This document shows, piece after piece, positions 7,963 through 39,204 of a stretch of DNA of 64,000 bases (position 1 is its first letter; each line of letters starts with the position of its first letter). Both the position numbers and the translations under genes were made by a program. Origin of the DNA: Acidimicrobiia bacterium (GTDB lineage Bacteria > Actinomycetota > Acidimicrobiia > Acidimicrobiales > Aldehydirespiratoraceae); NCBI GenBank assembly GCA_022819505.1, contig JAJEHD010000015.1:1538-65537 (forward strand), read 5' to 3'. The notes beneath the pieces were generated by a model. That model was given only the letters and a program-made list of their open reading frames with translations, was not told where the DNA came from and made no database searches.

Positions 7963-8022
7963 CCGGCGCCACGGAATCTGTGGGTGAAACCCGCCCACCG
8001 ACCCACATGGATGGGAGGAGAC

Positions 8023-9519
8023 ATGGTGGAGTCGAGAGCGCATCGCAGACGAATCTGGAGGTGGGTGGCCATCATGCTGGCCTTCGCCATCGTCGCATCC
8101 GCCTGCGGCGACGACGATGAGGAGCCGGCAAGCCAACCTGAGGCGCCCGCCGAGCCCGCGGTCGATCCCGACCCCGAGCCCGAAGCCCCGGCTGAAGAGC
8201 CTGAGGCGCCCGCCGAGGAGCCCGAACCCGAACCCGAGGCGCCGGCTGAGGAGCCCGAAGCGCCCGCGGAGGAGCCCGAGCCAGAACCTGAAGAGCCGGC
8301 CGAGGAGCCCGAGCCCGAACCCGAACCACCGGCGCTGACGGCCAGTTACCGGGGCGTGACCGAGGACTCGATCAGGGTCGGCGTGCTGTTGATCGACAAG
8401 GACCTGCTGTTCGAGGTGGCCAACGTCCTGCTCAACTGGGGCGACAACGTGGCCCAGTACCAGGAGGCCATCGACGCCATCAACGAAGCGGGCGGCGTCA
8501 ACGGCCGTCTTATCGAGCCGGTCTTCGAGCTAGTCAACCCGCTGAGCCCGACCGCTTACGACGAGTCGTGCGTGAAGCTCACCCAGGACGAGCAGATCTT
8601 CGCGGCAATCGGCTTCGTGCGGCCCTCCGACGCGGCGCTGTGCTATGCGGAGATCAACGACACCCCGTTCGTCGGGTACCTGTCCGACGTCACCAGCCAG
8701 GTGACCGACCGCTCTGTGCTGCCCATCATCACCAGCAACGCCCTGCCCGAGCGCATGGACGGCGCGCTGGCGACCACCGTCGCAGCCACCGGCGCGCTGG
8801 ACGGCAAGACCATCGCGGTGCTGGGCAACTCGGACGCCCGCAACGAACTGGTCGTCTCGGCTCTGGCCGGCCTCGGCTACGACGTGGCCTCGACCACGGT
8901 CACCGCCGTGCCGACCGAGGACGAGGCCGCCGACGCCGCCGAGTTGGACATCGTCATCCAGCGCTGGATCGCCGACGGGATCGACTTCGTATTCGACACC
9001 GCCGGGCTCGACCGCCCGCTGGCAGCCGCCAACCGGGCCGGATTCGAGGCCGACTGGGCCACCAACCGCACGACCGTCCTTTCGGCGTCGAGGTTCGACT
9101 CGGGCGCCACCGAGGCCGAGATCGCGAGGACCATGGTGGTGGCGGTGCCGTCCGTCGAGCTGATCTACGAGCAGGGCCACGGACCCACGGTGGCCTGCGT
9201 CGACCGCTGGAACCAGAACCATCCCGACGAGCAGGCCGTCTTCTACCCGGGAGAGGACGATCTGGACAATCTCCAGCGCATCGTCCGTTCGTGCCAGCAG
9301 GTCGGCACCTTCGCCAGGATCGCCGAGCTGGCCGGGCCCGACCTGACCACCGAAGGCTTCGCGGCTGCGGTGGCCCAGGTGGGTTCCTACGAGATCCCCG
9401 AGCTGCCGTTCGCGTCGCTGGGCGCCGACAAGTGGGACGCCAACGACGTCGTCACCCTCTTCCACTGGGACTCCGAGCTAGGGGACTTCGTAGCGGGCGA
9501 CTTCGTCGACATTGGCTGA
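8023..9519 (+). CDS. ABC transporter substrate-binding lipoprotein, PBP1 / Leu-Ile-Val-binding-like
   Basis: ATG at 8023 follows GGGAGGAG. It has a signal peptide ending ...AIVASAC-GDDD, a Pro/Glu-rich linker, and IRVGVL...INEAGGVNGRLIEPV typical of Peripla_BP_6. Confidence 0.85.
   Translation: MVESRAHRRRIWRWVAIMLAFAIVASACGDDDEEPASQPEAPAEPAVDPDPEPEAPAEEPEAPAEEPEPEPEAPAEEPEAPAEEPEPEPEEPAEEPEPEPEPPALTASYRGVTEDSIRVGVLLIDKDLLFEVANVLLNWGDNVAQYQEAIDAINEAGGVNGRLIEPVFELVNPLSPTAYDESCVKLTQDEQIFAAIGFVRPSDAALCYAEINDTPFVGYLSDVTSQVTDRSVLPIITSNALPERMDGALATTVAATGALDGKTIAVLGNSDARNELVVSALAGLGYDVASTTVTAVPTEDEAADAAELDIVIQRWIADGIDFVFDTAGLDRPLAAANRAGFEADWATNRTTVLSASRFDSGATEAEIARTMVVAVPSVELIYEQGHGPTVACVDRWNQNHPDEQAVFYPGEDDLDNLQRIVRSCQQVGTFARIAELAGPDLTTEGFAAAVAQVGSYEIPELPFASLGADKWDANDVVTLFHWDSELGDFVAGDFVDIG
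8182..8289 (+). repeat. imperfect 54-bp tandem duplication inside the lipoprotein linker (encodes EAPAEEPEAPAEEPEPEP twice)
   Basis: Units 8182..8235 and 8236..8289 align codon for codon with synonymous or near-synonymous changes. Confidence 0.7.
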
Positions 9520-9531
9520 CTCTCCGGCATC

Positions 9532-9572
9532 GCTTGCGGCTGCGGTCCTCGAGGGTGACCGCAGCCGCAAGC
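9532..9572 (+). promoter_or_regulatory. perfect 16-bp-stem / 9-nt-loop hairpin immediately after the binding-protein stop codon
   Basis: GCTTGCGGCTGCGGTC (9532-9547) is the exact reverse complement of GACCGCAGCCGCAAGC (9557-9572). No U-tract follows. Confidence 0.75.
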
Positions 9573-9616
9573 AGCCTGCGCCTGCCGAGCCCGTAGCGGA
9601 CGACCTCCTCCCCGGG

Positions 9617-11680
9617 GTGGGAGGGGCCGATCAGACGAGCCTGCGGGAGGGGCTCAGAACGGCCGGGCCGTTCACCTTCGTCGTGCTGTTGCTGCTCAAC
9701 AGCCTCGACGAACTCGAGAGCGAGATCATCACCGTGCTGGCCCCCGACATCCGGGACACGTTCGGGGTCAGCGACGGGACGATCGTGTTCATCACCTCGG
9801 CTTCCGCGGCCTTCTTCGTGCTGGGAGCGGTCCCGATGGGCTACCTCGCCGACCGCTTCAACCGGTCGCGCCTGGTGGGCTTCGCGTCGCTGGCCTTCAG
9901 CGCCATGGTGTTCCTGTCGGGGCTGGCGGTCAGCGCGTTCATGCTGTTCTGGACACGCTTCGTCGCCGGCATCTCCAAGGCCAACACCCTGCCGGTGCAC
10001 GGCTCGATCATCGCCGACGCCTACCCGATCTCGGTGCGGGGACGGATCGCGGCCACAAACTCGATGGTGGGCAAGACGCTGGCCGCCATCAGCCCGATCG
10101 CCGCGGGCTGGATCGGCCACACCTACGGATGGCGGACGCCCTTCTTCATCCTGGGGGTGCCGGTTGCGATCATGGGGCTGCTGGCGTTCAGGATCCCCGA
10201 GCCGGCCCGGGGCCAGTGGGAGAAAAGAGACGTCCTCGACGAGGTCTTCGTCGACCCCGAATCGGCCCCGGTGTCGCTGGAGGCCGCATTCGCACGGCTG
10301 ATGAAGATCCGCACCCTGAAGATGATGGTGGTGGGGTTCGCCGCGCTCGGGTTCAGCCTGTTCACGGTCCCGGCCCTGGCCAGCCTGTTCATGGAGGAGC
10401 AGTACGGGGCCAACGCCTTCCAGCGAGGAGTGGTCGTCTCCATCGGCGGATTCGCCGGCATCGCCGTGCTCCCCTTCCTCGGGCGCTACTACGACCGCGC
10501 CTATAGGGCCGACCCGTCGAGCTCGCTGCGCATGATCGGCAGGTGCATCGTGCCGATGGCGGTGGTGACCCCGGTCCAGTTCCTGATGCCCGGCATGGCC
10601 TCCTTCGCGGCGGTGGGCGTGGTCCACAGCCTGCTGGCCGTGGGCGCGTTCAGCATGGTCATCCCCCTGATCCAGGGCATCGTGCCGTACCGGCTGCGAG
10701 GCATGGGACTGGCCCTGATCACCCTGTACATCTTCCTCATCGGAGCCATAGGAGGCTCGCTGCTCTCGGCCTGGCTCACCAACGACTTCAGCAACCGCAC
10801 CGCCGTGTTCGTGCTGGCCATCCCGGCCAACATCATCGGCGGGACGGCCCTGTACCGGGGCAGCCGCTTCATCCGGGGCGACCTGGCCCTGGCCGCCTCC
10901 GACCTGCGGGAGGAGATGGCCGAGCACCGCCGGCTCACCTCCGACCCGGCGTCGGTGCCCGCCCTTCAGGTGCGAGGGGTGGACTTCAGCTACGGGAACG
11001 TGCAGATCCTCTTCGACACCTCCTTCGAGGTGCGTCAGGGCGAGACGCTGGCCCTGCTCGGCACCAACGGCGCGGGCAAGTCCACCATCCTCAAGGTGAT
11101 CACCGGGCTGGTGACGCCCGAGCGCGGCGTCGTCCGCCTCGGGGGACGGACCATCACGTTCGCGACGCCCGAGCAACGGGCCCGGCTCGGCATCGAGATG
11201 CTGCCGGGAGGCACGGGGGTGTTCGGATCGTTGACGGTCCGCGACAACCTCGTCGTTGGCGCATACCGGTACCGCAAGGACCCGGCCGACGTGGACAGGC
11301 GCATCGAACGGGTGATGGAGCTGTTCCCGCAGCTGGCCGACCGCTCCAGCGTCCGGGCCAGCAGCCTCTCGGGCGGCCAGCAGCAGATGCTGGCCCTGGC
11401 CCGGGTGATGCTGCACGAGCCCAGGATCCTGGCCATCGACGAGCTGTCGCTGGGGCTGGCCCCGGCCGCGGTGCAATCCCTGCTGGAGACCATCGACACG
11501 CTCCGGGCCGCCGGGCAGACCATGATCATCGTCGAGCAGTCGCTCAACGTCGCGCTGGCAGTGGCCGACCGGGCCGTGTTCCTCGAGAAGGGCCGGGTGC
11601 GCTTCGACGGCCCGGCCTCGGAACTGGCCGACCGGCCCGACCTCGCCCGGGCCGTGTTCTTGGGTTCAGACGAGGCGTAG
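9617..11680 (+). CDS. fusion protein: 12-TM MFS transporter domain plus C-terminal LivF-like ABC ATPase
   Basis: MFS motif A is GYLADRFNRSR. From about 10960 the ATPase shows Walker A GTNGAGKST, signature LSGGQQQM and Walker B ILAIDELS. The start is uncertain. I prefer GTG 9617 because the longest-ORF TTG at 9512 would place the hairpin inside the CDS. Confidence 0.8.
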   Translation: MGGADQTSLREGLRTAGPFTFVVLLLLNSLDELESEIITVLAPDIRDTFGVSDGTIVFITSASAAFFVLGAVPMGYLADRFNRSRLVGFASLAFSAMVFLSGLAVSAFMLFWTRFVAGISKANTLPVHGSIIADAYPISVRGRIAATNSMVGKTLAAISPIAAGWIGHTYGWRTPFFILGVPVAIMGLLAFRIPEPARGQWEKRDVLDEVFVDPESAPVSLEAAFARLMKIRTLKMMVVGFAALGFSLFTVPALASLFMEEQYGANAFQRGVVVSIGGFAGIAVLPFLGRYYDRAYRADPSSSLRMIGRCIVPMAVVTPVQFLMPGMASFAAVGVVHSLLAVGAFSMVIPLIQGIVPYRLRGMGLALITLYIFLIGAIGGSLLSAWLTNDFSNRTAVFVLAIPANIIGGTALYRGSRFIRGDLALAASDLREEMAEHRRLTSDPASVPALQVRGVDFSYGNVQILFDTSFEVRQGETLALLGTNGAGKSTILKVITGLVTPERGVVRLGGRTITFATPEQRARLGIEMLPGGTGVFGSLTVRDNLVVGAYRYRKDPADVDRRIERVMELFPQLADRSSVRASSLSGGQQQMLALARVMLHEPRILAIDELSLGLAPAAVQSLLETIDTLRAAGQTMIIVEQSLNVALAVADRAVFLEKGRVRFDGPASELADRPDLARAVFLGSDEA

Positions 11681-11710
11681 ACGCAGCGGGACCGAGCGGA
11701 GACGCAGGGG

Positions 11711-14560
11711 ATGCTTGCCGCCTGGCTCACATCGCAGCTGGTGTTCAACGGCCTGGTCAACGGGCTGGTCACCGGGCTGCTGGCCATGGGCCTGGTCCTG
11801 GTGTACCGGTCCACCCGGGTGGTGAACCTGGCCGTCGGCAACATGGGGCTGGTGGGCGCGTCGCTGCTGGCACTCCTGGTGCTCAACTACCACTTCCCGT
11901 TCTGGCTGGCGCTGGCGCTCAGCCTGGCCACCGGCACCCTGTTCGGCGCGGTCGTCGACCTGGTGGTGGTGCGCCGGCTGTTCAGCTCACCCAGGGTGAT
12001 AGTGCTGATGGCCACGGTGGGCGTGGCCCAACTGGCGTCCGGGATCAGCGGCTCCTACCCCGACCTCAACATGAGGGGCAACAAATACCCCACCGCCCTG
12101 TCCGGAGTGTTCGACGATGTCCTGGGGCTGCGGATCACCGGACCGCAGCTCAGCATCCTGATCGTGGTACCCGCAGCCGCGGTCGGCCTGGCGTGGCTGC
12201 TGCGACGCACCACCTTCGGCCGCGCCGTGGAGGCCTCGGCCGACAATCCACCGCTGTCGCGGCTGTCCACCGTCAACCCCAAGATGGTCTCGACGTTCGT
12301 GTGGACCATCGCCGGGCTCCTGTCCACCGTCTCGATCATGCTGCTGTCGGCCCAGATCGGGAACCCCGCCGGCCTGGACAACCTCGGGATGCTGACCATG
12401 GCCCGGGCGATGCTCGCGTTCGTGCTGGCCGGCCAGCGGTCGTTCGCCCGAGCGGTGGCATTCGGTGCGCTGATCGGGGTGGCCGAAGCGGTGCTCAGGT
12501 TCAACCTGCTGACCGAGCCCGGGCTGTTCGACTTCGCCGCGCTGGTGCTGGTGGTGGCCATCGTCTACCAGCAGAGCCGCTCGAGCCCGGACGACACCAC
12601 CTTCGCCTTCGCGCCGAAGGCACGCCGCCCACCCGAGCGGGCTCAGGAGATCTGGTGGATCCGCAGGATGCCGCACCTGGCTGCGACGCTGATCATGGTG
12701 GCGGCGGTGCTGCTGCCCATCGTTGTGACCCGGCCCAGTCGCCACCTGCTCTACGCCTCCATTGCCTGCTACGCGATCTGCGCCCTGTCGCTCACCGTCA
12801 TCACCGGCTGGGCCGGACAGCTGTCGCTGGCCCAGATGGCCTTCGCCGGCCTGGGGGCCCTGCTGGCCGCCGCGCTCAACCGGGGCTTCGAGATGGACGT
12901 CTGGCTGCTCGACTTCCAGGCTCCGCCGCTCCCGTACCTGGCCGCCATCGCGGTCGCCGCGGTGGTGATGGCTGGCGTGGCCGCGCTGGTCGGCCTGGGC
13001 GCGCTCCGCGTGCGCGGACTGCAACTGGCCGTGATCACCTTCATGCTCGCGGTCGCAGCCGAGCAGTACATCTATCGCTGGCCGGTGCTCAGCGACGGCA
13101 ACGCCAATTCGGTGTCGTTCCGCCGGGGCACGGTCCTCGGCGTCGACGTCAGCAGCCAGCGGGCCTACTACTACTTCTGTGTGGCCGTGCTGGTGGTGGT
13201 GTTCGTGCTGGTGGCCCGGCTGCGCAACAGCGGGATCGGCCGGTCCACGATCGCGGTGCGCGACAACCCCGAAGCGGCCTCGGCCTACACCATCAGTCCG
13301 AGCCGATCGAAGCTGGCCGCGTTCGCGATGGCCGGAGGCATCGCCGCCCTCGGCGGGGCGATGCTGGGCGGCCTGTTCCAGAACATTCCCTTCGGGGAGC
13401 GCTACTACCTGATCGACGACTCGCTGCAGCTGGTGGCCATGGTCGTGATCGGCGGGCTCGGAGCGTTGACCGGACCGCTCGTCGGCGCCCTGTGGGTGAT
13501 AGGTCTGCCTGCGTTCTTCGGGGACAACGAGCTGGTGCCGCTGTTCACCTCCAGCGTCGGGCTGCTCATCATCCTGATGTACTTCCCCGGAGGGTTCGCG
13601 CAGATCGGGTACGCCACCCGCAAGTTGCTGTACGACTGGGCTCTGCGGCGGCTCCCGCCCGGCGAGCCGGAGCCCCCGGCCAAACCGGTGGCCGTTCCAG
13701 CCGGCGGCGGGGACCGAGCCCGTCCGGCGCCGGCGGGCGTGAGCGAGGGCGACGCCGTGCTCCGGGCCCGGGGAGTGTCGGTGAGCTTCGGGGGGCTCCA
13801 GGCGGTGTCCGGCGTCGACCTCGACGTCACTGGTAGCGAGATCGTTGGACTCATCGGCACCAACGGTGCCGGCAAGACGACGTTCGTGAACGCGGTCGGA
13901 GGCCACGTCGGCTCGCTGGGCACCGTCGAGTTGCTCGGCCACGACGTGTCGAGGCTGAGCGTGGAGGCTCGGGCCCGCCACGGGCTGGGCCGCACCTTCC
14001 AGACCGCCCGGCTGTTCGGCGAGCTGACGGTGCGGGAGACGGTTCAGGTGGCGCTCGAGGCCCGGGGCCGCACCCCCTTCGTGAGCACCGCGCTGGGCCT
14101 GCCCCCGGCCCGGCGGCTGGCCCGGCAGCGACGGGCCGAGGCGGACGAGCTGATCGGGTTCTTCGGACTCGGCGGCTACGCCGAGGAGTTCATCGTCGAC
14201 CTGTCGACCGGCACCCGCCGCATCGTCGAGCTGACCAACCTCATGGCCCTGGACGCCAAGTTCCTCTGTCTCGACGAGCCGACCGCGGGCCTAGCCCAGC
14301 GCGAGAGCGAGGCCTTCGGGGTGCTGCTGGTGGAAGTGCGGCGCGAGTTGGCGGTGTCGATGCTGGTGATCGAGCACGACATGCCTCTCATCATGTCCAT
14401 AAGCGACCGCGTGTACTGCCTCGAAGCTGGTCAGGTGATCTCCGAGGGAGCGCCGGCCGACGTCAGATCCGACCCCAGGGTGATCGACAGCTACCTCGGC
14501 ACCGACGAGCGGGCCATCCTGCGCAGCGACGCTTCGACACAACCCGAAAGGAGACCCTGA
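11711..14560 (+). CDS. triple fusion LivH-like permease + LivM-like permease + LivG-like ABC ATPase
   Basis: The N-terminus GLLAMGLVLVYRSTRVVNLAVGNMG is LivH-like. The mid region ITGWAGQLSLAQMAFAGLGA is LivM-like. From about 13750, VSFGGLQAVSGVDL...GLIGTNGAGKTT, LSTGTRR and FLCLDEPTAGL are LivG-like. Confidence 0.85.
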   Translation: MLAAWLTSQLVFNGLVNGLVTGLLAMGLVLVYRSTRVVNLAVGNMGLVGASLLALLVLNYHFPFWLALALSLATGTLFGAVVDLVVVRRLFSSPRVIVLMATVGVAQLASGISGSYPDLNMRGNKYPTALSGVFDDVLGLRITGPQLSILIVVPAAAVGLAWLLRRTTFGRAVEASADNPPLSRLSTVNPKMVSTFVWTIAGLLSTVSIMLLSAQIGNPAGLDNLGMLTMARAMLAFVLAGQRSFARAVAFGALIGVAEAVLRFNLLTEPGLFDFAALVLVVAIVYQQSRSSPDDTTFAFAPKARRPPERAQEIWWIRRMPHLAATLIMVAAVLLPIVVTRPSRHLLYASIACYAICALSLTVITGWAGQLSLAQMAFAGLGALLAAALNRGFEMDVWLLDFQAPPLPYLAAIAVAAVVMAGVAALVGLGALRVRGLQLAVITFMLAVAAEQYIYRWPVLSDGNANSVSFRRGTVLGVDVSSQRAYYYFCVAVLVVVFVLVARLRNSGIGRSTIAVRDNPEAASAYTISPSRSKLAAFAMAGGIAALGGAMLGGLFQNIPFGERYYLIDDSLQLVAMVVIGGLGALTGPLVGALWVIGLPAFFGDNELVPLFTSSVGLLIILMYFPGGFAQIGYATRKLLYDWALRRLPPGEPEPPAKPVAVPAGGGDRARPAPAGVSEGDAVLRARGVSVSFGGLQAVSGVDLDVTGSEIVGLIGTNGAGKTTFVNAVGGHVGSLGTVELLGHDVSRLSVEARARHGLGRTFQTARLFGELTVRETVQVALEARGRTPFVSTALGLPPARRLARQRRAEADELIGFFGLGGYAEEFIVDLSTGTRRIVELTNLMALDAKFLCLDEPTAGLAQRESEAFGVLLVEVRRELAVSMLVIEHDMPLIMSISDRVYCLEAGQVISEGAPADVRSDPRVIDSYLGTDERAILRSDASTQPERRP

Positions 14561-16287
14561 TGGCCGTCTATGACCTGGTCGTCCGCAACGGTGCCGTCGT
14601 GGACGGCAGCGGCATGCCGGCCCGTCCCGCCGACGTGGCGGTGTCGGGCCGCAAGATCGTCGCGGTCGGCGCGGTGGAGGGCCGCGGCAGCCGCGAGATC
14701 GACGCCTCCGACCACATCGTCACGCCGGGATTCATCGACGGCCACACCCACATGGACGCCCAGTTCTTCTGGGATCCCCTGGGCACGTCCTCGTGCTGGC
14801 ACGGGGTCACCACGGTGGTGGTCGGCAACTGCGGCTTCACCCTGGCCCCGTGCCGGTCGGGCCAGGAGCAGCTCGTGATCGACAACCTCGAGAAGGCCGA
14901 GGACATCCCGGCCGCAGCGCTGGCCGCCGGCGTGCACTTCGAGTGGGAGACCTTCGCCCAGTACCTCGACGCGTTGGACCGACTGCCCAAGGGGATCAAC
15001 CTCGGCTCCTACCTGGGGCACTCTGCCCTGCGGACATACGCTATGGGCGAACGGGCCTTCGAGGCGGAGGCGACCGAGGACGACCTCGAAGCCATGGAAC
15101 GAGAGCTGCGGGCCGGGCTGGCCGCCGGCGCGCTGGGCTTCACCACGTCCAGGAGCCACCACCACATGACGCCCTCGGGCCGCCCGGTGGCGTCGCGGGT
15201 GGCGCCCTGGGGCGAGGTGGAGCGCCTGGTGGCCGCCATGGCGGGGGCCGGAGGCGGAATGTTCGAGCTGGCCAACGAGTCGGTGATGGCATCCACGGAC
15301 CCCGAGGGCCGGGCTGAGGCCATGGCCCGGCTGCGCCGCCTCGCGGTCGGCAACCGGGTGCCGGTCAGCTTCGGGATCTCCACCTTCGGCGATCCCAACC
15401 GCTGGCTGGAGCTGCTGCGGCTCCTCGACGACGCGGCCCGCGACGGTGCCCAGATGTGGGGCCAGAGCAGCTGCATGCCATCGGGCGCGCTGTTCAACTT
15501 CAAGACCTGGCTGCCCTTCGACAAGGTGCCCACCTGGTCCGAGCTGCGAGCCCGGCCCCTCGACGAGCAGGCCGTCAAGCTGCGCGACCCGGACGTGCGG
15601 GCCAGTCTGATCGAGTCCCTCAGCGGCATGGACTTCTCGCTGGGCAAGGAAGTGGCCCGCAAGCCGCTGTTCGAGCGGATAGTGGTGATGCAGCGCGACC
15701 GGGCCACCTCCCCCACCTTGGCCAGCGTGGCTGCCGAACGCGGCGTGCACCCGGCGGAGGCCATGATCGAGCTGGGCCTTGAGTCGGACTTCGACACGTT
15801 CTTCCTGCAGGTCACCAGCAACGACGAGCCTGACGACGTGCTGACGATGCTGCGCCACCCCCGCACGGTCATGACCTTCTCCGACGCGGGCGCCCACGTA
15901 AGTCAGATCATCAGCGCGTCGCTGCAGACCTACCTGCTCAGCCACTGGGTGCGGGAGGCCGGCGAGTTCTCCATCGAGGAGGCGGTGCGCATGATCACCC
16001 TGGTGCCTTCGAGCATCTGGGGCATGGCCGACCGGGGTCTGGTGCGTGAGGGCTTCGAGGCCGACCTGAACATCATCGACCTGGAGCGCCTAGAGCCGTG
16101 CGTGCCCGAGGTCGTCCACGACCTGCCCGCAGGCGCCACCAGGCTGACCCAGCGGGCCGAGGGCATCACGGCCACCATCGTGGGAGGCGAGGTGCTCCTA
16201 GCGAACGGCGAGCACACCGGCGCCCTCCCCGGCCGCCTCATACGTCGCCCGGACGCGCTCAACCGGGCGAGGCGACGGAGCGAGTGA
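14560..16287 (+). CDS. N-acyl-D-amino-acid deacylase (D-aminoacylase) family amidohydrolase
   Basis: The ATG overlaps the upstream TGA. It contains YDLVVRNGAVVDGSG...VTPGFIDGHTHMD and VVVGNCG, typical of the family. Confidence 0.8.
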   Translation: MAVYDLVVRNGAVVDGSGMPARPADVAVSGRKIVAVGAVEGRGSREIDASDHIVTPGFIDGHTHMDAQFFWDPLGTSSCWHGVTTVVVGNCGFTLAPCRSGQEQLVIDNLEKAEDIPAAALAAGVHFEWETFAQYLDALDRLPKGINLGSYLGHSALRTYAMGERAFEAEATEDDLEAMERELRAGLAAGALGFTTSRSHHHMTPSGRPVASRVAPWGEVERLVAAMAGAGGGMFELANESVMASTDPEGRAEAMARLRRLAVGNRVPVSFGISTFGDPNRWLELLRLLDDAARDGAQMWGQSSCMPSGALFNFKTWLPFDKVPTWSELRARPLDEQAVKLRDPDVRASLIESLSGMDFSLGKEVARKPLFERIVVMQRDRATSPTLASVAAERGVHPAEAMIELGLESDFDTFFLQVTSNDEPDDVLTMLRHPRTVMTFSDAGAHVSQIISASLQTYLLSHWVREAGEFSIEEAVRMITLVPSSIWGMADRGLVREGFEADLNIIDLERLEPCVPEVVHDLPAGATRLTQRAEGITATIVGGEVLLANGEHTGALPGRLIRRPDALNRARRRSE

Positions 16288-23055: not shown

Positions 23056-25287
23056 ATGGTGCTGACACCGGCCGCGACTGAGCGCATCTCGTCCCTGACG
23101 CCGACGCTCACCCCGCGTCCCAAGTTCCACGTCACCCGCAAGCTGGTGGGTGTCTGGAAGTGGCCGCTGGTGCTGCTGACGGCCGTCTACACGATCAACG
23201 TGAGCGACCAGTTCCTGCTGTCGTCCATGTTCCCGCTGCTAAAGCGCGAGTTCGGGCTGTCCGACACCGCTCTGGGAATCCTCAGCGGCTCCTACCTGAT
23301 CAGCGTCACGCTCGGCACGGTGCCGTTCGGCGCGCTGGCCGACCGCTACAGCCGCACCAGGATCATCGCCTGGGGGACGGCCGCCTGGGGTGTCACCATG
23401 ATCTTCACCGGGCTGGCCAGCGGCTTCGTCATGCTGCTGCTGGGACGGATGGTGCTCGGTCTCTGGGATCCGTGCGACAACCCGACCTCGCAGTCGCTGC
23501 TGGCCGACTACTACCCGGTGAACCAGCGCTCCAAGGTGATGGGCATCTACCAGATGGGGCAGCTCACGGGCTTCTTCCTGTTGCCCATCGGGGGGCTGAT
23601 GGGCCAGGCCTGGGGCTGGCGGGCCACCTTCTTCTTCTTCGCGCTGCCCGCCTTCGTGGTGGCCCTGCTTAGCTGGCGCCTGCCCGAGCCGGTGCGGGGC
23701 GTCCAGGAGCGTCGCCACCAGCGCCTCGAGTCCGACGAGAGGGCGGTCATCCCATCCAGGTTCCAGAGCATCCCGGTGGTGGATGCCTACCGGCACATAC
23801 TGCGGTGCCGCTCCTACACCGCCAGCCTGGTGTCGTCCGCGGTCGGGAGCCTGTTCTTCGGCGGCATCGGCGTGTGGACGCCCACGTTCCTGATCCGCTA
23901 CCACGACCTCGACATCGCCGAGGCCACCACCGCGCTGAGCGTGGTGGCCGTGGGCGGCCTCGTGGGTGTGCTCACCGCGGGAAACCTCGCCGACTTCCTG
24001 ACCCATGCGGGCTACACGTCGGCCCGTATCGGCGTGGCCGGCATCGCCCGCCTGATCTCCGCGCCTCTGTTCATGGCCGCCTTCCTGGTGGGCTACACGC
24101 CGCTGATGCTGGTCCTGCTCTCATTCGGCGCCCTGTTCCTGGTGGCCGCGATCCCCCCGCTCAACGCAGCCCGGGTCGACGTGCTGCATCCTGATCTGCG
24201 CGGCCGGGGCACCTCTCTCGACGCGGTGACCCAGAGCCTGGCCTCGGCCGCCTCGCCGGTGATCTACGGCATGATCGCCGATGCCGCCGACCTGCGGACG
24301 GCCTACATGGTGCTGATCCCGCTGGCGGCGCTGGCCGGGCTGATCCTGATGACCTTCGCGCTGGCCAGCTACCGGCGCGACGAGCAGGCCGTCCAGGCGA
24401 TGGTCCGCCAGGAGCACGCCGAGCACGTTGCCGGCCTGACCAGGAGCGCCGAACCGCCTGCCGAGACCGCCGAGGCCGTCGAGGCGCCAACGCCCGCAGG
24501 GCCGCGAGCGGAGGCTGACCCGGCCGGTGCGGACGAGTCCGGGAGCGAGGTCCGGGACGCCGCCCGGGGTGACCCCCTGCTTCACATCGAGGGCCTGGAC
24601 TTCTCCTACGGGCCGATCCAGGTGCTATTCGGCATCGACATGACGCTGCCGGAGGGCGGTTGCCATGCGTTGGTGGGCCGCAACGGGGTGGGCAAGACCA
24701 CCCTGCTGGCCAACATCGGCGGGCTCCTGCACGCCCAGTCGGGCCGGATGTTCTTCCGGAACCAGGACCTGGTCGGCATACCTCCCGAGCAACGGGCCAA
24801 GCTGGGCATCACCCTGATGGCCGCGGGTCAATCGATCTTCGGATCGTTGAGCGTGCGCGACAACCTCTGGTTCGGCGCCTACCCGTTCGCCGGCAGCAGC
24901 AGCCTGGTGGGAAGCCGCCTCGAGGAGGTGCTCGACGTGTTCCCCGCACTCGGCAGCCGCCTCGATCAGCGGGCCGGCACCCTCTCGGGCGGTGAGCAGC
25001 AGATGGTCGCCCTCGGCCGGGCGCTGGTGGCCGGGCCGGACCTGCTGCTGATCGACGAGTTGAGCCTGGGCCTGGCCCCGACCGTCACCGCGGAGCTCCT
25101 CAAGGTGGTGGAGCGCATCGCCGCGCTGGGAACCACGATCCTGCTGGTCGAGCAGTCGATCGGGGTGGCGCTCTCGGTGGCGGACTCCGTGTTCTTCATG
25201 GACCGGGGCCGGGTGAGCGAACTGGGTCCGGCGACGGCCCTCGATGCCGACGAACTGGCCCACCGGCTCCTGGAGAGCCAGCAATGA
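23056..25287 (+). CDS. fusion protein: MFS domain plus C-terminal LivF-like ABC ATPase (paralog of 9617..11680)
   Basis: ATG at 23056 follows GGGAGCGG. MFS motif A is GALADRYSRTR. An Ala/Glu/Pro linker spans ~24370-24575. The ATPase then shows GRNGVGKTT, LSGGEQQM and LLLIDELS. Confidence 0.85.
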   Translation: MVLTPAATERISSLTPTLTPRPKFHVTRKLVGVWKWPLVLLTAVYTINVSDQFLLSSMFPLLKREFGLSDTALGILSGSYLISVTLGTVPFGALADRYSRTRIIAWGTAAWGVTMIFTGLASGFVMLLLGRMVLGLWDPCDNPTSQSLLADYYPVNQRSKVMGIYQMGQLTGFFLLPIGGLMGQAWGWRATFFFFALPAFVVALLSWRLPEPVRGVQERRHQRLESDERAVIPSRFQSIPVVDAYRHILRCRSYTASLVSSAVGSLFFGGIGVWTPTFLIRYHDLDIAEATTALSVVAVGGLVGVLTAGNLADFLTHAGYTSARIGVAGIARLISAPLFMAAFLVGYTPLMLVLLSFGALFLVAAIPPLNAARVDVLHPDLRGRGTSLDAVTQSLASAASPVIYGMIADAADLRTAYMVLIPLAALAGLILMTFALASYRRDEQAVQAMVRQEHAEHVAGLTRSAEPPAETAEAVEAPTPAGPRAEADPAGADESGSEVRDAARGDPLLHIEGLDFSYGPIQVLFGIDMTLPEGGCHALVGRNGVGKTTLLANIGGLLHAQSGRMFFRNQDLVGIPPEQRAKLGITLMAAGQSIFGSLSVRDNLWFGAYPFAGSSSLVGSRLEEVLDVFPALGSRLDQRAGTLSGGEQQMVALGRALVAGPDLLLIDELSLGLAPTVTAELLKVVERIAALGTTILLVEQSIGVALSVADSVFFMDRGRVSELGPATALDADELAHRLLESQQ

Positions 25288-25748
25288 CCTCGTCGCCGGA
25301 CCTGCTGGAACGCAGCGCCCGAACGGCGACGCGGCTGCTGGGACCGTGGTGGAACGAGCGGACCCGGCGAGTGCTGTTCGCGGTGGTGATCACCGCCGGC
25401 TTCGTGGTCGGACTGGTGCTCGGCCTGCTCCAGGTGTACGACCGGGAGGTCCTCGACGTGGGCGAGCCGCGGGTCCGGGTGGAGGGGCTGACCGCGACGG
25501 TGCAGGTGACGGTGCGCAACACGTCCGAGGACGTCGCCTACTGCCCGGTCGTGGCGGTCGCCGCTCTCGACCGGGACGGCCTCGACCTGGCCAAGGCCAC
25601 CGCCGCCCCCGACTTGGGCGACGCCCGGCTGGCCCCCAAGGCCAGCACCAACTTCGTGGGGGTGCTGACCGGAATCAGCCGGCAGGACTTCGATGAGCAG
25701 CTCAGCGAGTACGCCGCCTTCGTCGAGCAGGAGAACCCCTGCCCATGA
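25284..25748 (+). CDS. small single-pass membrane protein with a ~100-aa extracytoplasmic domain, function unknown
   Basis: ATGA overlaps occur at both ends. It has one TM helix (VLFAVVITAGFVVGLVLGLL), then beta-rich VRVEGLTATVQVTVRNTS..., and coding-like composition. Confidence 0.6.
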   Translation: MTSSPDLLERSARTATRLLGPWWNERTRRVLFAVVITAGFVVGLVLGLLQVYDREVLDVGEPRVRVEGLTATVQVTVRNTSEDVAYCPVVAVAALDRDGLDLAKATAAPDLGDARLAPKASTNFVGVLTGISRQDFDEQLSEYAAFVEQENPCP

Positions 25749-28582
25749 CGCTGCCCCTCGTCGGCTTCGAGGTCCCCCAGAACGTCGTCATCCTCGGTGT
25801 GATCACCGGTCTCACCTACTCGCTGCTGGGGCTGGGCATCACCCTCGTCTACCGGTCGTCGCGGGTCATCAACTTCGCCCACGGCGAGATGGGCGCGCTG
25901 GCTGCGCTGATGATCCCGATATTCGCCCTGAACCTCGGCTGGCCCTACGCCCTCGCGCTGGTCATCGCCCTGCTGGTGGCCGCGGCCACCGGCGGGCTGT
26001 TCGAGTTCCTGGTGATCCGGCCCCTGCGCTCGGCGTCGCGCCTCACCGTGCTGGTGGCCACCATCGGCGCCTCGCAACTGCTGTTCTTCGGCGGCGCGCT
26101 GCTGCCCAAGGGCGGCGACATCGTGGGCAAGATCTACCCGACACCCTTCGACTGGCGCATCACCGTCGGCACGCTCCTTCTCGGGCCCGGTCAGCTGACC
26201 ATCCTGGTGGCCGTACCGATCCTGACCGTCGCCCTGGCCCTGTTTCTCGGGCGCAGCCGGCTGGGCAAGGCCAGCCGGGCCGCGGCCGAGAACACCGACG
26301 CCGCCCGGCTGGCCGGGGTCCCGATCGACAAGGTGTCGTTCGCGGTGTGGACCGCGGCCGGGCTGCTGGCCGGTGTGTCGGCCATCCTCATCGGACCGAC
26401 CCGACCCCTGGCGCTGTCCCAGGCTCTCGGACCCCAGCTGATGCTGAAGGCGCTGGCCGCCGCGATGCTCGGCGGGCTCACCCGCCTCTCGTCGGTGTTC
26501 GTCGCCGGCATCGCCATCGGTGTGCTCGAGGCGCTCGTGCTGTGGAACTACCCGATCGGCGGCGCGCTGGACCTGGTGCTGCTGGCCGCGATCGCAGGCA
26601 GCTTCCTGATGCAGAAGCGGCTGGGCTCCGTGCTCCGGGGCTCCGAGCAGAGCTCCTGGACGCTGGCCGCCGCCATCGCGCCTCTCAAACCCGCCCTGGC
26701 CACCAACCTCAGGGTTCGATTCACCAAGATCGCCCTGCTGACGGCCGCGCTGGCAGTGGCCGCCTACCTGCCGGCCCGCATGACCTCGTCGGAGCAGTTC
26801 TTCATGGGAGCGGTCGCGCTGTTCGCGGTACTGGGTCTGTCGCTGGTGGTGCTGACCGGTTTCGCGGGCCAGGTGTCGATGGGGCAGTTCGCGTTCGTGG
26901 CCGTCGGCGCGGCCCTGGGCGGGCGCCTGTACCAGATGGGCCTTCCCCACGGGCCGGCGCTCGTGGCCGCCACCGCCGCCGGCGGGCTCGTGGCGCTGCT
27001 GATCGGACTGCCGGCGCTGCGTATCCGGGGTCTGTTCCTGGCCGTAATTACGCTCGCCTTCTCGGTGGCGGCCAGCGGTTGGCTGCTGGAGCAGGACTGG
27101 CTCAACCATCGGGGCAGCGACGGCGGCACCTCGATGTCGATCCCCCGGCCCACCTTCGCCGGGGTCGGCTTCGACCACGAGATCCGCTACTACTGGGTCT
27201 GCCTGGGCGCTCTGCTGATCACCATGTTCGTGGTCCACCGCCTGAGGCTCAGCGGCCTCGGCCGCAGGATGGTGGCCGTGAGGGACAACGAGCCGTCGGC
27301 GTCGAGCGTGGCCGTGTCGCCCCGCACGACGAAGCTGTCGGCCTTCGTGATCTCGGGGATGATCGCCTCCTTCGGCGGCTTCCTCTACGGCGGGCTGCTG
27401 GTGACGTTCTCCGGGGACATCGGCGGGACCTTCGGCCCCGGCGAGTCGCTGTCACTGGTGGTGATGACCATCTTCGGCGGGGTGACCACCATCACCGGGG
27501 CGGTGCTGGGAGCCTTCTGGGTTCAGGGCATCCCCCGGATCCTGGGCGAGGACTGGGGCCTGCTGTCGTCGGGGATGGGCGTGCTGGCGGTGCTGCTGCT
27601 GCTGCCGGGCGGGCTGGCGTCGCTGGTGTTCGCCACCCGCGACAAGCTGGTGGAGGCGGCCATCGACCGGGGGCTGCTACCGGCGGGCGAGACAGCCGGC
27701 CCTCCCGACCGGGAACCGGCCGGAGCAGCGCCCGCCGCGCCCGCTCCCCATGCCGGCGGGCCGGACGCGCCGCCCGGCGACGGGATCGAGATACTGGTGG
27801 CCTCCGGGATCTCGGTGTCCTACGGGGGCGTCCATGCGGTGCGCGATGTCTCCATAGGCGTGAAGCGCCACGAGATCGTCGGGGTGATGGGGCCCAACGG
27901 CGCCGGCAAGACCACGCTGTTCGACGCTCTCTCCGGCCACCGGCGTCCCGACTCGGGGAAGGTGCTGCTGGACGGGCGTGACATCAGCTCACTTCCCGCG
28001 CACCGCCGGGCACGACTTGGACTGGGCCGATCGTTCCAGCAGGCCCGGCTGTTCGAGGACATGATGCTGGTGGACGCGGTGAGCCTCGCGCTCGAGCGCC
28101 GGCACCCGACCCGGCTGGGCCCGGCACTGCTGGGGACGCCGCGGGCCCGCCGCCAGGAGCGGGAGCGCCAACGGATCGCGCTCGGGGTGCTCACCGACCT
28201 CGGTCTCCGGGGGCATGCCCACACCCAGATCGCCAACCTCTCGACCGGCACCCGGCGCCTGGCCGAGCTGGCCTGCGCCTCCGCGCTCGGGGCCCACGTC
28301 GTGCTGCTCGATGAGCCCACCGCAGGGCTGAGCCATCGTGAGGTCAGCGACTTCGTGCGGGTCATCTCGGAGTTGCGGTCCCGGGCCGGCATGACCTTCG
28401 TGGTGATCGACCACGACGTGGCCATGATGCGGTCGCTGGTGGACCGCCTGTACGTCCTCGAAGCCGGCGAGGAGATCGCGGCGGGCCCGCCCGAGATTCT
28501 CGACACGGACCCCAGGGTGATCGAGGCCTACATGGGCACCCAAACCGACGCCGGCCCACCGGCGCGAGGGATCACGACATGA
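25745..28582 (+). CDS. triple fusion LivH-like + LivM-like permeases + LivG-like ABC ATPase (paralog of 11711..14560)
   Basis: LGLGITLVYRSSRVINFAHGEMG is LivH-like. LTGFAGQVSMGQFAFVAVGA is LivM-like. From about 27790, VSYGGVHAVRDVS...GVMGPNGAGKTT, LSTGTRR and VLLDEPTAGL are LivG-like. Confidence 0.85.
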   Translation: MTLPLVGFEVPQNVVILGVITGLTYSLLGLGITLVYRSSRVINFAHGEMGALAALMIPIFALNLGWPYALALVIALLVAAATGGLFEFLVIRPLRSASRLTVLVATIGASQLLFFGGALLPKGGDIVGKIYPTPFDWRITVGTLLLGPGQLTILVAVPILTVALALFLGRSRLGKASRAAAENTDAARLAGVPIDKVSFAVWTAAGLLAGVSAILIGPTRPLALSQALGPQLMLKALAAAMLGGLTRLSSVFVAGIAIGVLEALVLWNYPIGGALDLVLLAAIAGSFLMQKRLGSVLRGSEQSSWTLAAAIAPLKPALATNLRVRFTKIALLTAALAVAAYLPARMTSSEQFFMGAVALFAVLGLSLVVLTGFAGQVSMGQFAFVAVGAALGGRLYQMGLPHGPALVAATAAGGLVALLIGLPALRIRGLFLAVITLAFSVAASGWLLEQDWLNHRGSDGGTSMSIPRPTFAGVGFDHEIRYYWVCLGALLITMFVVHRLRLSGLGRRMVAVRDNEPSASSVAVSPRTTKLSAFVISGMIASFGGFLYGGLLVTFSGDIGGTFGPGESLSLVVMTIFGGVTTITGAVLGAFWVQGIPRILGEDWGLLSSGMGVLAVLLLLPGGLASLVFATRDKLVEAAIDRGLLPAGETAGPPDREPAGAAPAAPAPHAGGPDAPPGDGIEILVASGISVSYGGVHAVRDVSIGVKRHEIVGVMGPNGAGKTTLFDALSGHRRPDSGKVLLDGRDISSLPAHRRARLGLGRSFQQARLFEDMMLVDAVSLALERRHPTRLGPALLGTPRARRQERERQRIALGVLTDLGLRGHAHTQIANLSTGTRRLAELACASALGAHVVLLDEPTAGLSHREVSDFVRVISELRSRAGMTFVVIDHDVAMMRSLVDRLYVLEAGEEIAAGPPEILDTDPRVIEAYMGTQTDAGPPARGITT

Positions 28583-29478
28583 CCGAGTTCGTCGACACCC
28601 ACGTGCATTTCTGGGACCACCGGGTCGAGGGCCTCCACTGGCGCTATCTCGACCCAAAGTTCGAGCATCCCCGCCTCAAGGGAATGCACCGCCTCGATGC
28701 CCCGCAGTTCACCGCGGCCGAACTGCGGGCCCAGGCAGGCGACCACGCTCCCGACCGGATCGTGCACATCCAGTCCTGTGTGGAGAGGGTCGCCGGACTG
28801 GAGACGGCCTGGCTGCAGTCGATGGCCGACGAGCAGGGGACCCCTGATGCCATCATCGCGCAGGCCCATCCCGCCGACGCCGACATCGCGTCGGTGATCG
28901 AGGCCAATACCGGCCACCGGCTGCTGCGCGGCTTCAGGGACATGCTGTCGCCCGGCACCATCGACAGCGGCGCCTTTGTCGAGGGCTTCGACCTGATAGC
29001 CGACGCCGGGCTGAGCCTCGAGGTGCTGGTCCCCTACCCCAAGTTCGACGCGGTCTGCGCCCTGGCCGACCGCCGGCCTGACGCCACGCTGATTCTGGGG
29101 CACGCCGGCCAGCCTGTGCAGCGCGACCGCGACTACTTCAAGGAGTGGTCGCACGGCATCAACCTGGTGGCATCCCGTCCCAATGTCGTGGTGAAGATCT
29201 CGGCCCTGGCCAGCGGCGCCGACCCGGACTGGAGCATCGACAGCATCAGAGGATGGGCCCAGCACTGCATCGAGGCCTTCGGCCCCGACCGGGCCATGTT
29301 CGGCACCAACTGGCCCATCGACCGCCTCTACGGCAGCTACGCCGCCCTCGTCGAGGCCTACCTGGAGATCACCTCGACGCTGACCGCCGCCGAGCGCCGA
29401 GACCTGTTCTCAGCCACCGCCAGCCGCGTCTACCGCCTCGATGATCCGGCGCTTGATACCCTCGAATCCCGCCCATGA
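28579..29478 (+). CDS. amidohydrolase_2 family hydrolase (paralog of 18093..18983)
   Basis: It starts FVDTHVHFWDH and has an ATGA overlap with the upstream gene. Confidence 0.8.
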   Translation: MTEFVDTHVHFWDHRVEGLHWRYLDPKFEHPRLKGMHRLDAPQFTAAELRAQAGDHAPDRIVHIQSCVERVAGLETAWLQSMADEQGTPDAIIAQAHPADADIASVIEANTGHRLLRGFRDMLSPGTIDSGAFVEGFDLIADAGLSLEVLVPYPKFDAVCALADRRPDATLILGHAGQPVQRDRDYFKEWSHGINLVASRPNVVVKISALASGADPDWSIDSIRGWAQHCIEAFGPDRAMFGTNWPIDRLYGSYAALVEAYLEITSTLTAAERRDLFSATASRVYRLDDPALDTLESRP

Positions 29479-30314
29479 CGAACGAGACGATCCGCCTGCA
29501 GCCGCTCACGGGTTCCGTCGGTGTGAGCCTCAGCGGCATCGACCTGACCACCGACTTCACCGAGGCCGAGGCGGACGCGCTCCGATCGGCCCTCTACAAC
29601 CACTGCGTGCTCATCCTGCGAGACCAGTTCCTGTCCCCGGACGACCACATGCGGCTGGCCGCGGTTTTCGGCGAGCCCTTCCTGCCCTGGTACTACGCCA
29701 AGAACTCGCTCGACGACTACCCGAAGATCGCCATCGTGCCCAACTTCGGCAAGGCCAAGGCCCCGGCCGAGTCGTGGCACACCGACTGGTCACACATGCC
29801 CACCCCGCCGACGGTGTCGGTCGCCCTGGCCCACGTCCTGCCCGAGACCGGCGGCGACACGATGTTCTCCAACCAGTACGTGGCCTACGACCGCCTGTCG
29901 GAGGGCATGAAGCAGCTCATCGCCGGCCGGCGGGGCAAGTTCGTGGGATCGCGGCCCAAGCGAGTCCAGAAGATGCACGGCAGGCCGGACACGCTTCCCT
30001 CCACCGAACGCGAACCGGTGGACAACTACCACCCAATCGCCCGGGTCCACCCGGAAACGGGCCGGACCGCCCTCTACCTCAACCGGCCCGGCAAGTCGAT
30101 GGTCGCCATCGAGGGCCTCACCGAGGCCGAGAGCCTCCCCATCCTCCAGTTCCTGTACGACCAGTCCTCGACCCCCGACAACGTCTACCGCCATCAGTGG
30201 CGACCCGGCGACGTCGTCTGCTGGGACAACCAGTGCGCCATGCACTACGGGGTCCACGACTACGGCGACGCCGAGCGCACCCTCCACCGGATAACCGTGG
30301 GCGGGGCGGAGTGA
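29475..30314 (+). CDS. TauD/TfdA family Fe(II)/2-oxoglutarate dioxygenase
   Basis: Contains the WHTDWSH (HxD) motif, GGDTMFSNQ and the distal His in CAMHYGVHDY. Confidence 0.85.
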   Translation: MTNETIRLQPLTGSVGVSLSGIDLTTDFTEAEADALRSALYNHCVLILRDQFLSPDDHMRLAAVFGEPFLPWYYAKNSLDDYPKIAIVPNFGKAKAPAESWHTDWSHMPTPPTVSVALAHVLPETGGDTMFSNQYVAYDRLSEGMKQLIAGRRGKFVGSRPKRVQKMHGRPDTLPSTEREPVDNYHPIARVHPETGRTALYLNRPGKSMVAIEGLTEAESLPILQFLYDQSSTPDNVYRHQWRPGDVVCWDNQCAMHYGVHDYGDAERTLHRITVGGAE

Positions 30315-37519: not shown

Positions 37520-37548
37520 CCTCCCCCGGATTCCCCCACGGCCCGAGG

Positions 37549-37566
37549 TATAGAGTACACCGTATT
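37549..37566. promoter_or_regulatory. AT-rich box, site 5 of 10 (TATAGAGTACACCGTATT), in a divergent promoter region
   Basis: It lies between TauD (start 37519, minus strand) and the binding-protein gene (start 37606, plus strand). Confidence 0.55.
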
Positions 37567-37605
37567 CTCAGGGCACGTCCGTCGAGATTCCCGAGGAGCC
37601 GGCCG

Positions 37606-39130: not shown

Positions 39131-39148
39131 AATTGGGTATACTGAGTT
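39131..39148. promoter_or_regulatory. AT-rich box, site 6 of 10 (AATTGGGTATACTGAGTT)
   Basis: It lies in the 111-nt gap upstream of lipoprotein gene 39205. Confidence 0.55.
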
Positions 39149-39204
39149 TTGATCTCGGGCCGGCACGTCCGCCGGTCCTTCGACATCCCAGAGGGAGGGC
39201 ACCC

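Follow-up and report, generated by a model that had tools for sequence, protein, structure and literature searches.

A conserved two-chain Liv-type ABC transporter with a Spinster-like MFS domain fused to LivF in Acidimicrobiia

Introduction

Can a carrier of the major facilitator superfamily (MFS) be a built-in part of an ATP-binding cassette (ABC) transporter? The two largest superfamilies of transporters, the ABC transporters and the MFS carriers, are taught as mechanistically separate, the former using ATP and the latter gradients. The question is raised by a stretch of 64,000 nucleotides from an Acidimicrobiia bacterium (GenBank assembly GCA_022819505.1, contig JAJEHD010000015.1, positions 1,538 to 65,537; G+C content 70 %), which we call the window, and which holds two operons, system 1 (7984-16287) and system 2 (23056-30314), that each encode a LivF-type ATPase fused to an MFS domain. 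We find that each system is a two-polypeptide ABC transporter of the Liv/Urt type (HAAT family). Chain 1 leads from a 12-helix Spinster-like MFS domain with a cytoplasmic C-terminus through a linker into the LivF-type ATPase, and chain 2 consists of LivH, LivM and LivG in one protein (LivHMG). The MFS-LivF fusion is genuine and ancient, not an artefact, and the transporter is widely conserved but has apparently not been described before. As to how the parts work together we lean, with slightly less than even confidence, towards an importer that depends on a binding protein and has a working MFS pathway besides, which would be cross-coupled to the nucleotide state of the ATPase dimer.

Results and Discussion

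Two MFS-LivF systems in one window

The initial annotation had described system 1 as a binding-protein gene followed by a protein of about 700 amino acids (aa), with an MFS part ahead of a LivF-like ATPase, and by a 949-aa LivH-LivM-LivG chain, and all three elements were borne out. The fusion protein measures 722 aa and contains the quoted motifs exactly (GYLADRFNRSR, GTNGAGKST, LSGGQQQM and IDELSLGLAP). It matches Pfam MFS_1 over aa 65-414 (profile positions 7-346 of 347, expectation value (E) 6e-37, 127.8 bits against a cut-off of 33.4) and ABC_tran over aa 502-644 (E 3e-29), and the nature and borders of the domains were confirmed by Pfam, NCBIfam, a sequence search of the PDB, and AlphaFold2 with Foldseek. 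For system 2 the MFS_1 match reaches 181.3 bits against the same cut-off of 33.4 and spans profile positions 3-347 of 347. Both AlphaFold2 models, that of system 1 with a predicted local distance difference test score (pLDDT) of 85.5 and that of system 2 with 87.0, place an ABC nucleotide-binding fold after 12 transmembrane helices, which form two halves of six with cytoplasmic loop helices between the sixth and the seventh. In the 949-aa chain Pfam finds two BPD_transp_2 stretches (E about 1e-52), ABC_tran (700-859) and BCA_ABC_TP_C (908-933). The binding protein is a lipoprotein whose Peripla_BP_6 match barely passes the Pfam threshold (31.9 bits against a cut-off of 31.7, E 1.5e-7).

The genes of system 1, from the lipoprotein to the Amidohydro_3 hydrolase, overlap or nearly abut (Table 1). 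The MFS-LivF gene starts with TTG and overlaps the stop of the lipoprotein gene, LivHMG has a GGAG ribosome-binding site 9 nucleotides 5' of its ATG, and the start of the Amidohydro_3 gene overlaps the LivHMG stop. The Amidohydro_3 gene, which is co-located in the closest loci of our scan (L003-L008; see below), is coupled to LivHMG in translation and probably belongs to the operon.

The same arrangement had been claimed for 23056..28582. This holds for the MFS-LivF and LivHMG genes, which both recur there; it does not hold for the rest, as an extra gene for a 154-aa protein lies between the two and no binding-protein gene adjoins system 2. The two fusion proteins are colinear over their full length, including both domains, at 31 % identity, and the two LivHMG proteins likewise at 37 %. 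Overlapping stop and start coordinates of LivHMG, Amidohydro_2 and TauD show translational coupling in system 2.

Table 1. Features of the two systems and related genes in the window
Feature	Coordinates	Strand	Remarks
Substrate-binding lipoprotein, system 1	7984..9519	+	Signal peptide with lipobox ASAC; Pro/Glu-rich linker of ~75 aa; Peripla_BP_6-type domain
MFS-LivF fusion, system 1	9512..11680	+	722 aa; Pfam and translation
Spinster-like MFS domain, 12 transmembrane helices	9668..10861 (aa 53-450)	+	AlphaFold2 helices
Linker helix	10871..10942 (aa 454-477)	+	AlphaFold2; conserved acidic D457, E467/E468, E471
LivF-type nucleotide-binding domain	10964..11680 (aa 485-722)	+	Walker A, Walker B and LSGGQ intact; Q-loop LPGGTGVF
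LivH-LivM-LivG triple fusion, system 1	11711..14560	+	949 aa; Pfam and NCBIfam
LivH part	11711-12610 (~aa 1-300)	+	
LivM part	12668-13630 (~aa 320-640)	+	Pro-rich linker between LivM and LivG
LivG part	13751-14560 (~aa 681-949)	+	
Amidohydro_3 hydrolase	14560..16287	+	Pfam E 3.6e-35
Stand-alone MFS transporter	18980-20413	-	477 aa; MFS_1 E 3e-63; between the two fusion systems, by Amidohydro_2 and SMP-30/gluconolactonase-like genes
MFS-LivF fusion, system 2	23056..25287	+	743 aa counted from the ATG at 23056; MFS_1 E 3e-53 and ABC_tran (Pfam)
MFS helices, system 2	23161-24450 (aa 36-465)	+	AlphaFold2
Disordered linker, system 2	24481-24564 (aa 476-503)	+	AlphaFold2
LivF part, system 2	24580-25287 (aa 509-743)	+	AlphaFold2
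154-aa single-pass membrane protein	25284..25748	+	Between system-2 MFS-LivF and LivHMG; one N-terminal transmembrane helix
LivH-LivM-LivG triple fusion, system 2	25745..28582	+	945 aa; two BPD_transp_2 stretches, E about 1e-52
Amidohydro_2	28579..29478	+	Pfam; coupled 3' of system 2
TauD-family dioxygenase	29475..30314	+	Pfam; coupled 3' of Amidohydro_2
Second lipoprotein	37513..39093	+	Lipobox AAAC; long acidic linker

The fusion is old and widespread

Searches covering 5.8 billion proteins gave at least 120 matches for each fusion paralogue. The homologues of the system-1 fusion (at least 120, 58-91 % identity) carry both Pfam domains in every case listed. For system 2 there are more than 100 full-length homologues, with both domains in the full-length matches, and the few entries with an MFS domain only are partial or frameshifted; LivHMG of system 1 has at least 120 full-length homologues. 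When the MFS domain alone was used as an exhaustive HMMER query, 181 representatives were found at E <=1e-30, of which the full-length members (698-752 aa) keep Walker A down to 28 % identity. A scan of one genome per species with a five-sequence MFS alignment as query found 324 loci; 82 of these were analysed. MFS and LivF share a single frame in 81 of the 82, and a single-frame LivHMG gene follows directly downstream in 65, the loci without one being mostly contig ends or frameshifted long-read contigs. A homologous binding-protein gene lies within 8 kb in 64 loci.

These results bear on the possibility that a frameshift, a misassembly or a miscalled start has joined separate genes. Some database entries do seem unfused (P0402 and P0404), but they were rejected as unfused homologues since both derive from frameshifted long-read contigs: the gene behind P0402 (locus L084, 8001-10700) changes frame more than once, and that behind P0404 (L083, 9300-9700) shifts once, in the linker. 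On the other hand, the 81 loci with one continuous frame come from independent assemblies, including the isolate genomes of Embleya and Ilumatobacter fluminis. The window itself holds two diverged copies, and the linker is under purifying selection, with a ratio of non-synonymous to synonymous substitutions (dN/dS) of 0.17-0.48 against close orthologues. We regard an artefact as so improbable that it can be set aside, and the argument of the initial annotation, that recurrence within the window speaks against one, has stood up. We point out that the frameshifts also break these genes in other long-read-only metagenome bins (L063, L070, L072, L077), which yields spurious unfused MFS proteins or a split LivHMG, and that such bins are a trap for surveys of domain architecture.

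The carriers are almost all Acidimicrobiia, a class abundant in oceans, soils and sponges across which the fusion is conserved. They comprise sponge-associated bins (98-99 % identity in the aligned part of the MFS domain), which evidently represent the lineage of the window itself, as well as Ca. Aldehydirespirator, Ca. Poriferisocius, Ilumatobacteraceae and marine lineages. Among cultured bacteria the fusion occurs in Embleya species, Streptomyces sp. SID3343 and Ilumatobacter fluminis (WP_166657336.1); in PLSDB the Embleya replicon is unannotated at the locus. The fusion is abundant in the databases already, under the generic names 'MFS transporter' and 'ATP-binding protein', and its recognition corrects the annotation of thousands of proteins that now bear just one of these names.

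Two groups of loci stand out by their layout. In the Ca. Aldehydirespirator group (L010, L012, L014, L017, L018, L022, L024-L026) a second MFS-LivF gene lies about 7 kb downstream, at about 16800-17300, with one or two binding-protein genes between the first and the second, and the family has thus been tandemly expanded within genomes. In marine Acidimicrobiia (L087-L089) the MFS-LivF/LivHMG pair occupies a fixed site beside a gene for an MscS-family channel and the dnaB-rplI-rpsR-ssb-rpsF cluster, and no binding-protein gene adjoins the pair in these three loci, which suggests a core-genome role in the marine lineages.

The MFS domain is of the Spinster type and under constraint

When a profile of the family's MFS domain was compared with the PDB, HnSpns (6E8J, E 6e-43), SPNS1 (3e-34) and SPNS2 (3e-29) came ahead of all other MFS structures, and an EPxRG motif after helix 6 (aa 230-234) aligns with the Spinster proteins. 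The domain has motif A (G110/D114/R118), motif B (R149/G153) and motif A' (G324/D328; all in system-1 numbering). Across 255 fused proteins D114, R115, R118, R149, G153, D169, Y171, P172, R176, W207, R208, P231, R233, G234, D328 and R396 are essentially invariant, three of them forming the conserved stretch D169-x-Y-P. Compared with close orthologues, the MFS domain has a dN/dS of 0.06-0.25 and the ATPase one of 0.12-0.20, the former being equal to or below the latter in three out of five comparisons. Judged by its sequence, the fused MFS domain is still constrained and probably functional, not a relic.

Helices 1 and 4 hold polar residues that are constant within the subfamilies of system 1 and system 2 (subfamilies 1 and 2) and differ between them. 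K156 is Lys in 117/117 members of subfamily 1 and Asp in 97/109 of subfamily 2; H163 is His in 116/117 and Ser in 101/109; D66 and E67 are each kept in 117/117 and replaced by Asn (93/109) and Val (96/109), respectively. Such a pattern would be expected of a ligand or coupling site. In HnSpns the helix-1 Asp-Arg pair D41/R42 is functionally important. Subfamily 1 keeps the helix-1 Asp of HnSpns (D66) with Glu instead of Arg as the next residue, and subfamily 2 aligns differently. The nearest unfused relative, from Umezawaea tangerina (about 31 % identity), is a stand-alone MFS protein beside a divergent TetR regulator, without liv genes, an efflux-like context. The stand-alone MFS gene of the window (18980-20413) was also considered as a relative of the fused domain and was rejected (E 0.003).

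Would such a domain necessarily transport? Alternatively, it could sense a ligand and so regulate the ATPase, as a transceptor, or it could set the LivF stoichiometry just as a membrane anchor or a scaffold for assembly. The subfamily-specific cavity residues would suit a sensor too, regulatory domains on the ATPases of ABC importers are well known (MalK, MetN, OpuAA), and LivH, LivM and LivG are likewise fused through flexible Pro-rich linkers, so that fusion is a trend of the lineage. However, a pure anchor would not keep motifs A, A' and B at the dN/dS values given above, and a 12-helix domain is an expensive anchor; this variant is disfavoured. As motifs A, A' and B serve conformational switching, at least a rocker-switch cycle should be retained. 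Overall we consider a non-transporting MFS domain unlikely, and prefer to see it as a working carrier.

The fused LivF is altered at its Q-loop

In the PDB the fused ATPase matches 1JI0 (E 5e-47; Foldseek target TM-score 0.90, root mean square deviation (rmsd) 2.2 Å), and in NCBIfam UrtE and LivF rank at the top, short of the equivalog cut-offs. For the LivG part NCBIfam LivG is at the top with 196-199 bits against an equivalog cut-off of 362, and LivHMG also matches UrtD, UrtB and UrtC; every NCBIfam equivalog cut-off is missed by these systems. A phmmer search of the PDB found no solved relative of the LivH/LivM part.

In ABC ATPases the Q-loop touches the catalytic metal and lines the groove through which the membrane domain is read. 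In E. coli LivF its key residue is Glu. This Glu is present in 1JI0 (VPEGRRIF) and in the unfused LivF of an Acidimicrobiia locus (L015), whereas none of 253 full-length fused LivF domains has Glu or Gln there (Gly in 203, Ala in 48, Ser in 1; the system-2 fusion has Ala). The MFS-fused LivF is therefore altered family-wide at exactly the element that communicates with the membrane domain. The variant IDELSLGLAP (for DEPSLGLAP) was also considered as a trait of the fusion and was rejected, because the unfused LivF of L015 has DEL too.

Both models give a predicted TM-score (pTM) of 0.77, compared with a ceiling of ~0.6, an estimate derived from the TM-score formula, for independently placed domains that make up ~58 % and ~32 % of the chain. 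In the models, this hints that the ATPase packs in a defined way against the MFS domain. Foldseek found no full-length structural analogue of the fusion model, the matches being dominated by the ATPase; full-length comparison with IrtAB, ABCB1 and Atm1 gave rmsd values of 21-28 Å and query TM-scores of <=0.28.

By analogy with ArsA and ArsB, the LivF-LivG dimer could power or gate the Spinster-like domain as a primary pump, with LivH/LivM in a parallel or auxiliary role. The covalent order from membrane domain to ATPase, the conserved linker helix, the pTM of both paralogues and the altered Q-loop all agree with an ATP-driven MFS domain. However, MFS carriers do not have a coupling helix of the ABC type, the full-length matches to ABC exporters are poor, and the linker of subfamily 2 is long and disordered. 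Furthermore, LivH, LivM and usually a binding protein are kept, so the ATPase dimer already has its canonical client, and no precedent for such a pump is known. We find this primary pump decidedly unlikely. A broader version also seems unlikely to us, in which a mechanical or allosteric link would join the LivF-LivG dimer to the Spinster-like domain, the MFS carrier would be gated or driven as ATP is bound and hydrolysed, and the change of the Q-loop Glu to Gly/Ala would let LivF read the MFS domain. If it were true, the family would be the first hybrid with a single ABC motor for two pathways, an MFS one and an ABC one that depends on a binding protein, and the interest of the family would be much greater if ATP indeed couples directly to the MFS domain.

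We also observed that the signature motif of LivG is LSTGTRR, not LSGGQ, in both paralogues of the window (13751-14560; 27800-28582). In these two, the composite ATP site made of the LivG signature and the LivF Walker A may be doubly atypical, as the LivF Q-loop is altered too.

One complex with three membrane modules

Each operon holds one ATPase of the LivF type and one of the LivG type, and no free LivF gene was found in the operons, which is why we suggest, with good support, that LivF and LivG form the ATPase heterodimer. It follows from this pairing that the MFS domain would sit in the same complex as LivH/LivM, and there is good support for a complex of three membrane modules (LivH, LivM and MFS), usually served by a lipoprotein binding protein. 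The family would then obligatorily place an MFS carrier in one complex with an ABC motor, and coupling between the two mechanisms becomes directly testable.

Alternatively, the two chains could belong to two independent transporters, an (MFS-ATPase)2 homodimer and a LivHMG that forms a homodimer or works with another ATPase, their adjacency reflecting shared regulation. Consistent with this, the genes are apart in at least one subfamily-2 locus, where LivHMG lies 7 kb off on the other strand, and 18/82 loci have no recognisable binding-protein gene nearby. Yet LivF and LivG are distinct paralogues that occur once each per HAAT system, and each operon here has exactly one of either and none to spare. 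The genes are adjacent, often overlapping, in about 80 loci, and the two partners have diverged in parallel between the window systems. Two separate transporters are, in our judgement, very improbable, and we continue with the joint complex.

A working model of import with a second pathway

In the importer with a second pathway that we tentatively prefer, the binding protein would hand its ligand to LivH/LivM, which would import it at the expense of ATP. This organic substrate is probably an ester, amide or acid of amphipathic or conjugated character and not a branched-chain amino acid. The MFS domain would be a working rocker-switch carrier with a ligand site of its own. Through it a related solute, for instance excess substrate or a product of hydrolysis, would take a second pathway, most likely by proton-coupled efflux or exchange. 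The activity of the carrier could be linked to the nucleotide state of the LivF-LivG dimer or act back on it, and this coupling could run through a contact of the MFS domain with LivF, which has Gly/Ala in place of the Q-loop Glu. We also considered that the MFS domain replaces the binding protein, and rejected it as 64/82 loci retain a binding protein.

Several points weigh against the preferred model. The distant LivHMG gene of one subfamily-2 locus and the 18 loci without a binding-protein gene, both mentioned above, do not fit it easily. The LivF-LivG pairing, and any contact of the MFS domain with LivH/LivM, are inferred, and an internal start may yield free LivF. The packing argument from pTM is indirect, and the 28 disordered residues of the system-2 linker fit loose tethering better than rigid mechanical coupling. 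The direction of efflux is drawn solely from homology and from the context of one distant relative. The model can be approached through tractable handles, namely the Q-loop change and the subfamily-specific cavity residues, and through the cultured sources Embleya scabrispora DSM 41855 and Ilumatobacter fluminis.

Comparison with known transporters

The closest known systems are LivJ/K-LivHMGF and UrtABCDE (HAAT, TC 3.A.1.4), which likewise have two BPD_transp_2 domains, a LivG-type ATPase with BCA_ABC_TP_C, a LivF/UrtE-type ATPase and a binding protein of the Peripla_BP_6 type. Our systems differ in having two chains instead of four membrane and ATPase subunits, in the N-terminal 12-helix MFS domain of LivF, in the replacement of the Q-loop Glu (PEGR) by Gly/Ala, in falling short of all the NCBIfam equivalog cut-offs, and in a gene context that points to esters, amides or organic acids. 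With the Spinster family (HnSpns 6E8J, SPNS1, SPNS2; TC 2.A.1.49) they share motif A, EPxRG, the 12-helix fold and, in subfamily 1, the helix-1 Asp, followed by Glu and not by the Arg of HnSpns. The known Spinster members stand alone, whereas here the C-terminus runs into an ABC ATPase.

In the arsenite pump ArsAB a secondary-type carrier, ArsB, is physically associated with the ATPase ArsA. However, ArsA lies outside the ABC ATPases and ArsB outside the MFS, the two are separate proteins, and there is no additional complete ABC translocator. MalK, MetN, ModC and OpuAA show that transport can be modulated by an accessory domain on the ATPase; their domains are soluble, C-terminal and small, in contrast to the N-terminal, full-size polytopic transporter found here. 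In ECF transporters ABC-type ATPases serve a membrane protein without the ABC-transporter fold, but the S-components are small six-helix proteins docked on EcfT and unfused to the ATPase, and there is no binding protein or LivH/LivM-type domain. Unlike in the half-transporters of ABC exporters (type IV), the membrane domain here has the MFS fold and not the six-helix exporter type with coupling helices. LplT-Aas is another MFS fusion. A family of sensor kinase-MFS fusions is listed as TC 2.A.1.34 (PMC3924187). In neither is the MFS domain linked to an ABC ATPase or made part of an ABC transporter.

The initial annotation had known of no characterised MFS domain that is an obligate partner of an ABC ATPase, and in the searchable full-text literature, NCBIfam and the PDB we likewise found none. 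This literature, on fusions of MFS with ABC proteins or LivF, on domain architecture and on the transporters of Acidimicrobiia, did not yield the fusion. No MFS-ABC ATPase fusion was found in the comparative paper of the Saier laboratory (PMC3924187). NCBIfam has no model specific to the fusion, and the PDB has no entry with the full-length architecture.

Gene context and substrate

The system had been described as a branched-chain-amino-acid type importer; judged from the gene context, specificity for branched-chain amino acids is improbable. The neighbours of system 1 include Amidohydro_3 and alpha/beta-hydrolases and those of system 2 Amidohydro_2, TauD and a 2-hydroxyacid dehydrogenase; further along the window there are a coenzyme A (CoA)-transferase, acyl-CoA dehydrogenases, an enoyl-CoA hydratase and a P450. 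The Embleya operon, whose binding protein is of the Peripla_BP_6 type (E 2e-15), continues into Abhydrolase_3 and Peptidase_S15, and in the marine lineages a PaaK-like ligase and an acyl-CoA dehydrogenase precede the pair. Such hydrolase and acid-catabolic neighbours favour ester, amide or organic-acid substrates over branched-chain amino acids, and the substrate is probably one of the former. No tRNA or Rfam matches were found in the window.

The 154-aa protein encoded between the two transporter genes of system 2, whose gene start overlaps the MFS-LivF stop, has an extracytoplasmic domain of ~100 aa with two conserved Cys and only a weak Pfam match, to DUF4307. It shares 40 % identity over 85 aa (E 2e-18) with the product of the gene at the same position in L085 (10247-10684). 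The gene is also present in L083 (10359-10715) and L084, is specific to the system-2 subfamily, and may encode an accessory subunit.

The lipoprotein encoded at 37513-39093, which has no Pfam or NCBIfam match, looks like a binding protein and is a candidate for that of system 2. Together with the products of 7984-9519 and 39133-39807 it has a long, acidic, low-complexity linker rich in Pro, Glu and Ala. Lipoprotein signals are present in the translations of 7984-9519 and 37513-39093, and the product of 39133-39807 matches repeat profiles only (PARP, TonB_N).

The region 28579-53839 forms a dense catabolic island with three Amidohydro_2 genes, two TauD dioxygenases, a P450, a 764-aa double CoA-transferase III, four acyl-CoA dehydrogenase-like genes, an enoyl-CoA hydratase, two short-chain dehydrogenases/reductases and an aldehyde dehydrogenase. 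In L083 and L084, too, the subfamily-2 fusions are flanked by these enzyme families, an indication of a common pathway for a lipophilic acid. Downstream of system 1, the consecutive open reading frames 16098-17408 and 17405-18076 (+ strand) each match alpha/beta-hydrolase profiles (FrsA-like, AXE1 and Peptidase_S15), and do so over the same N-terminal part; the true start of the first is uncertain because it overlaps the Amidohydro_3 gene.

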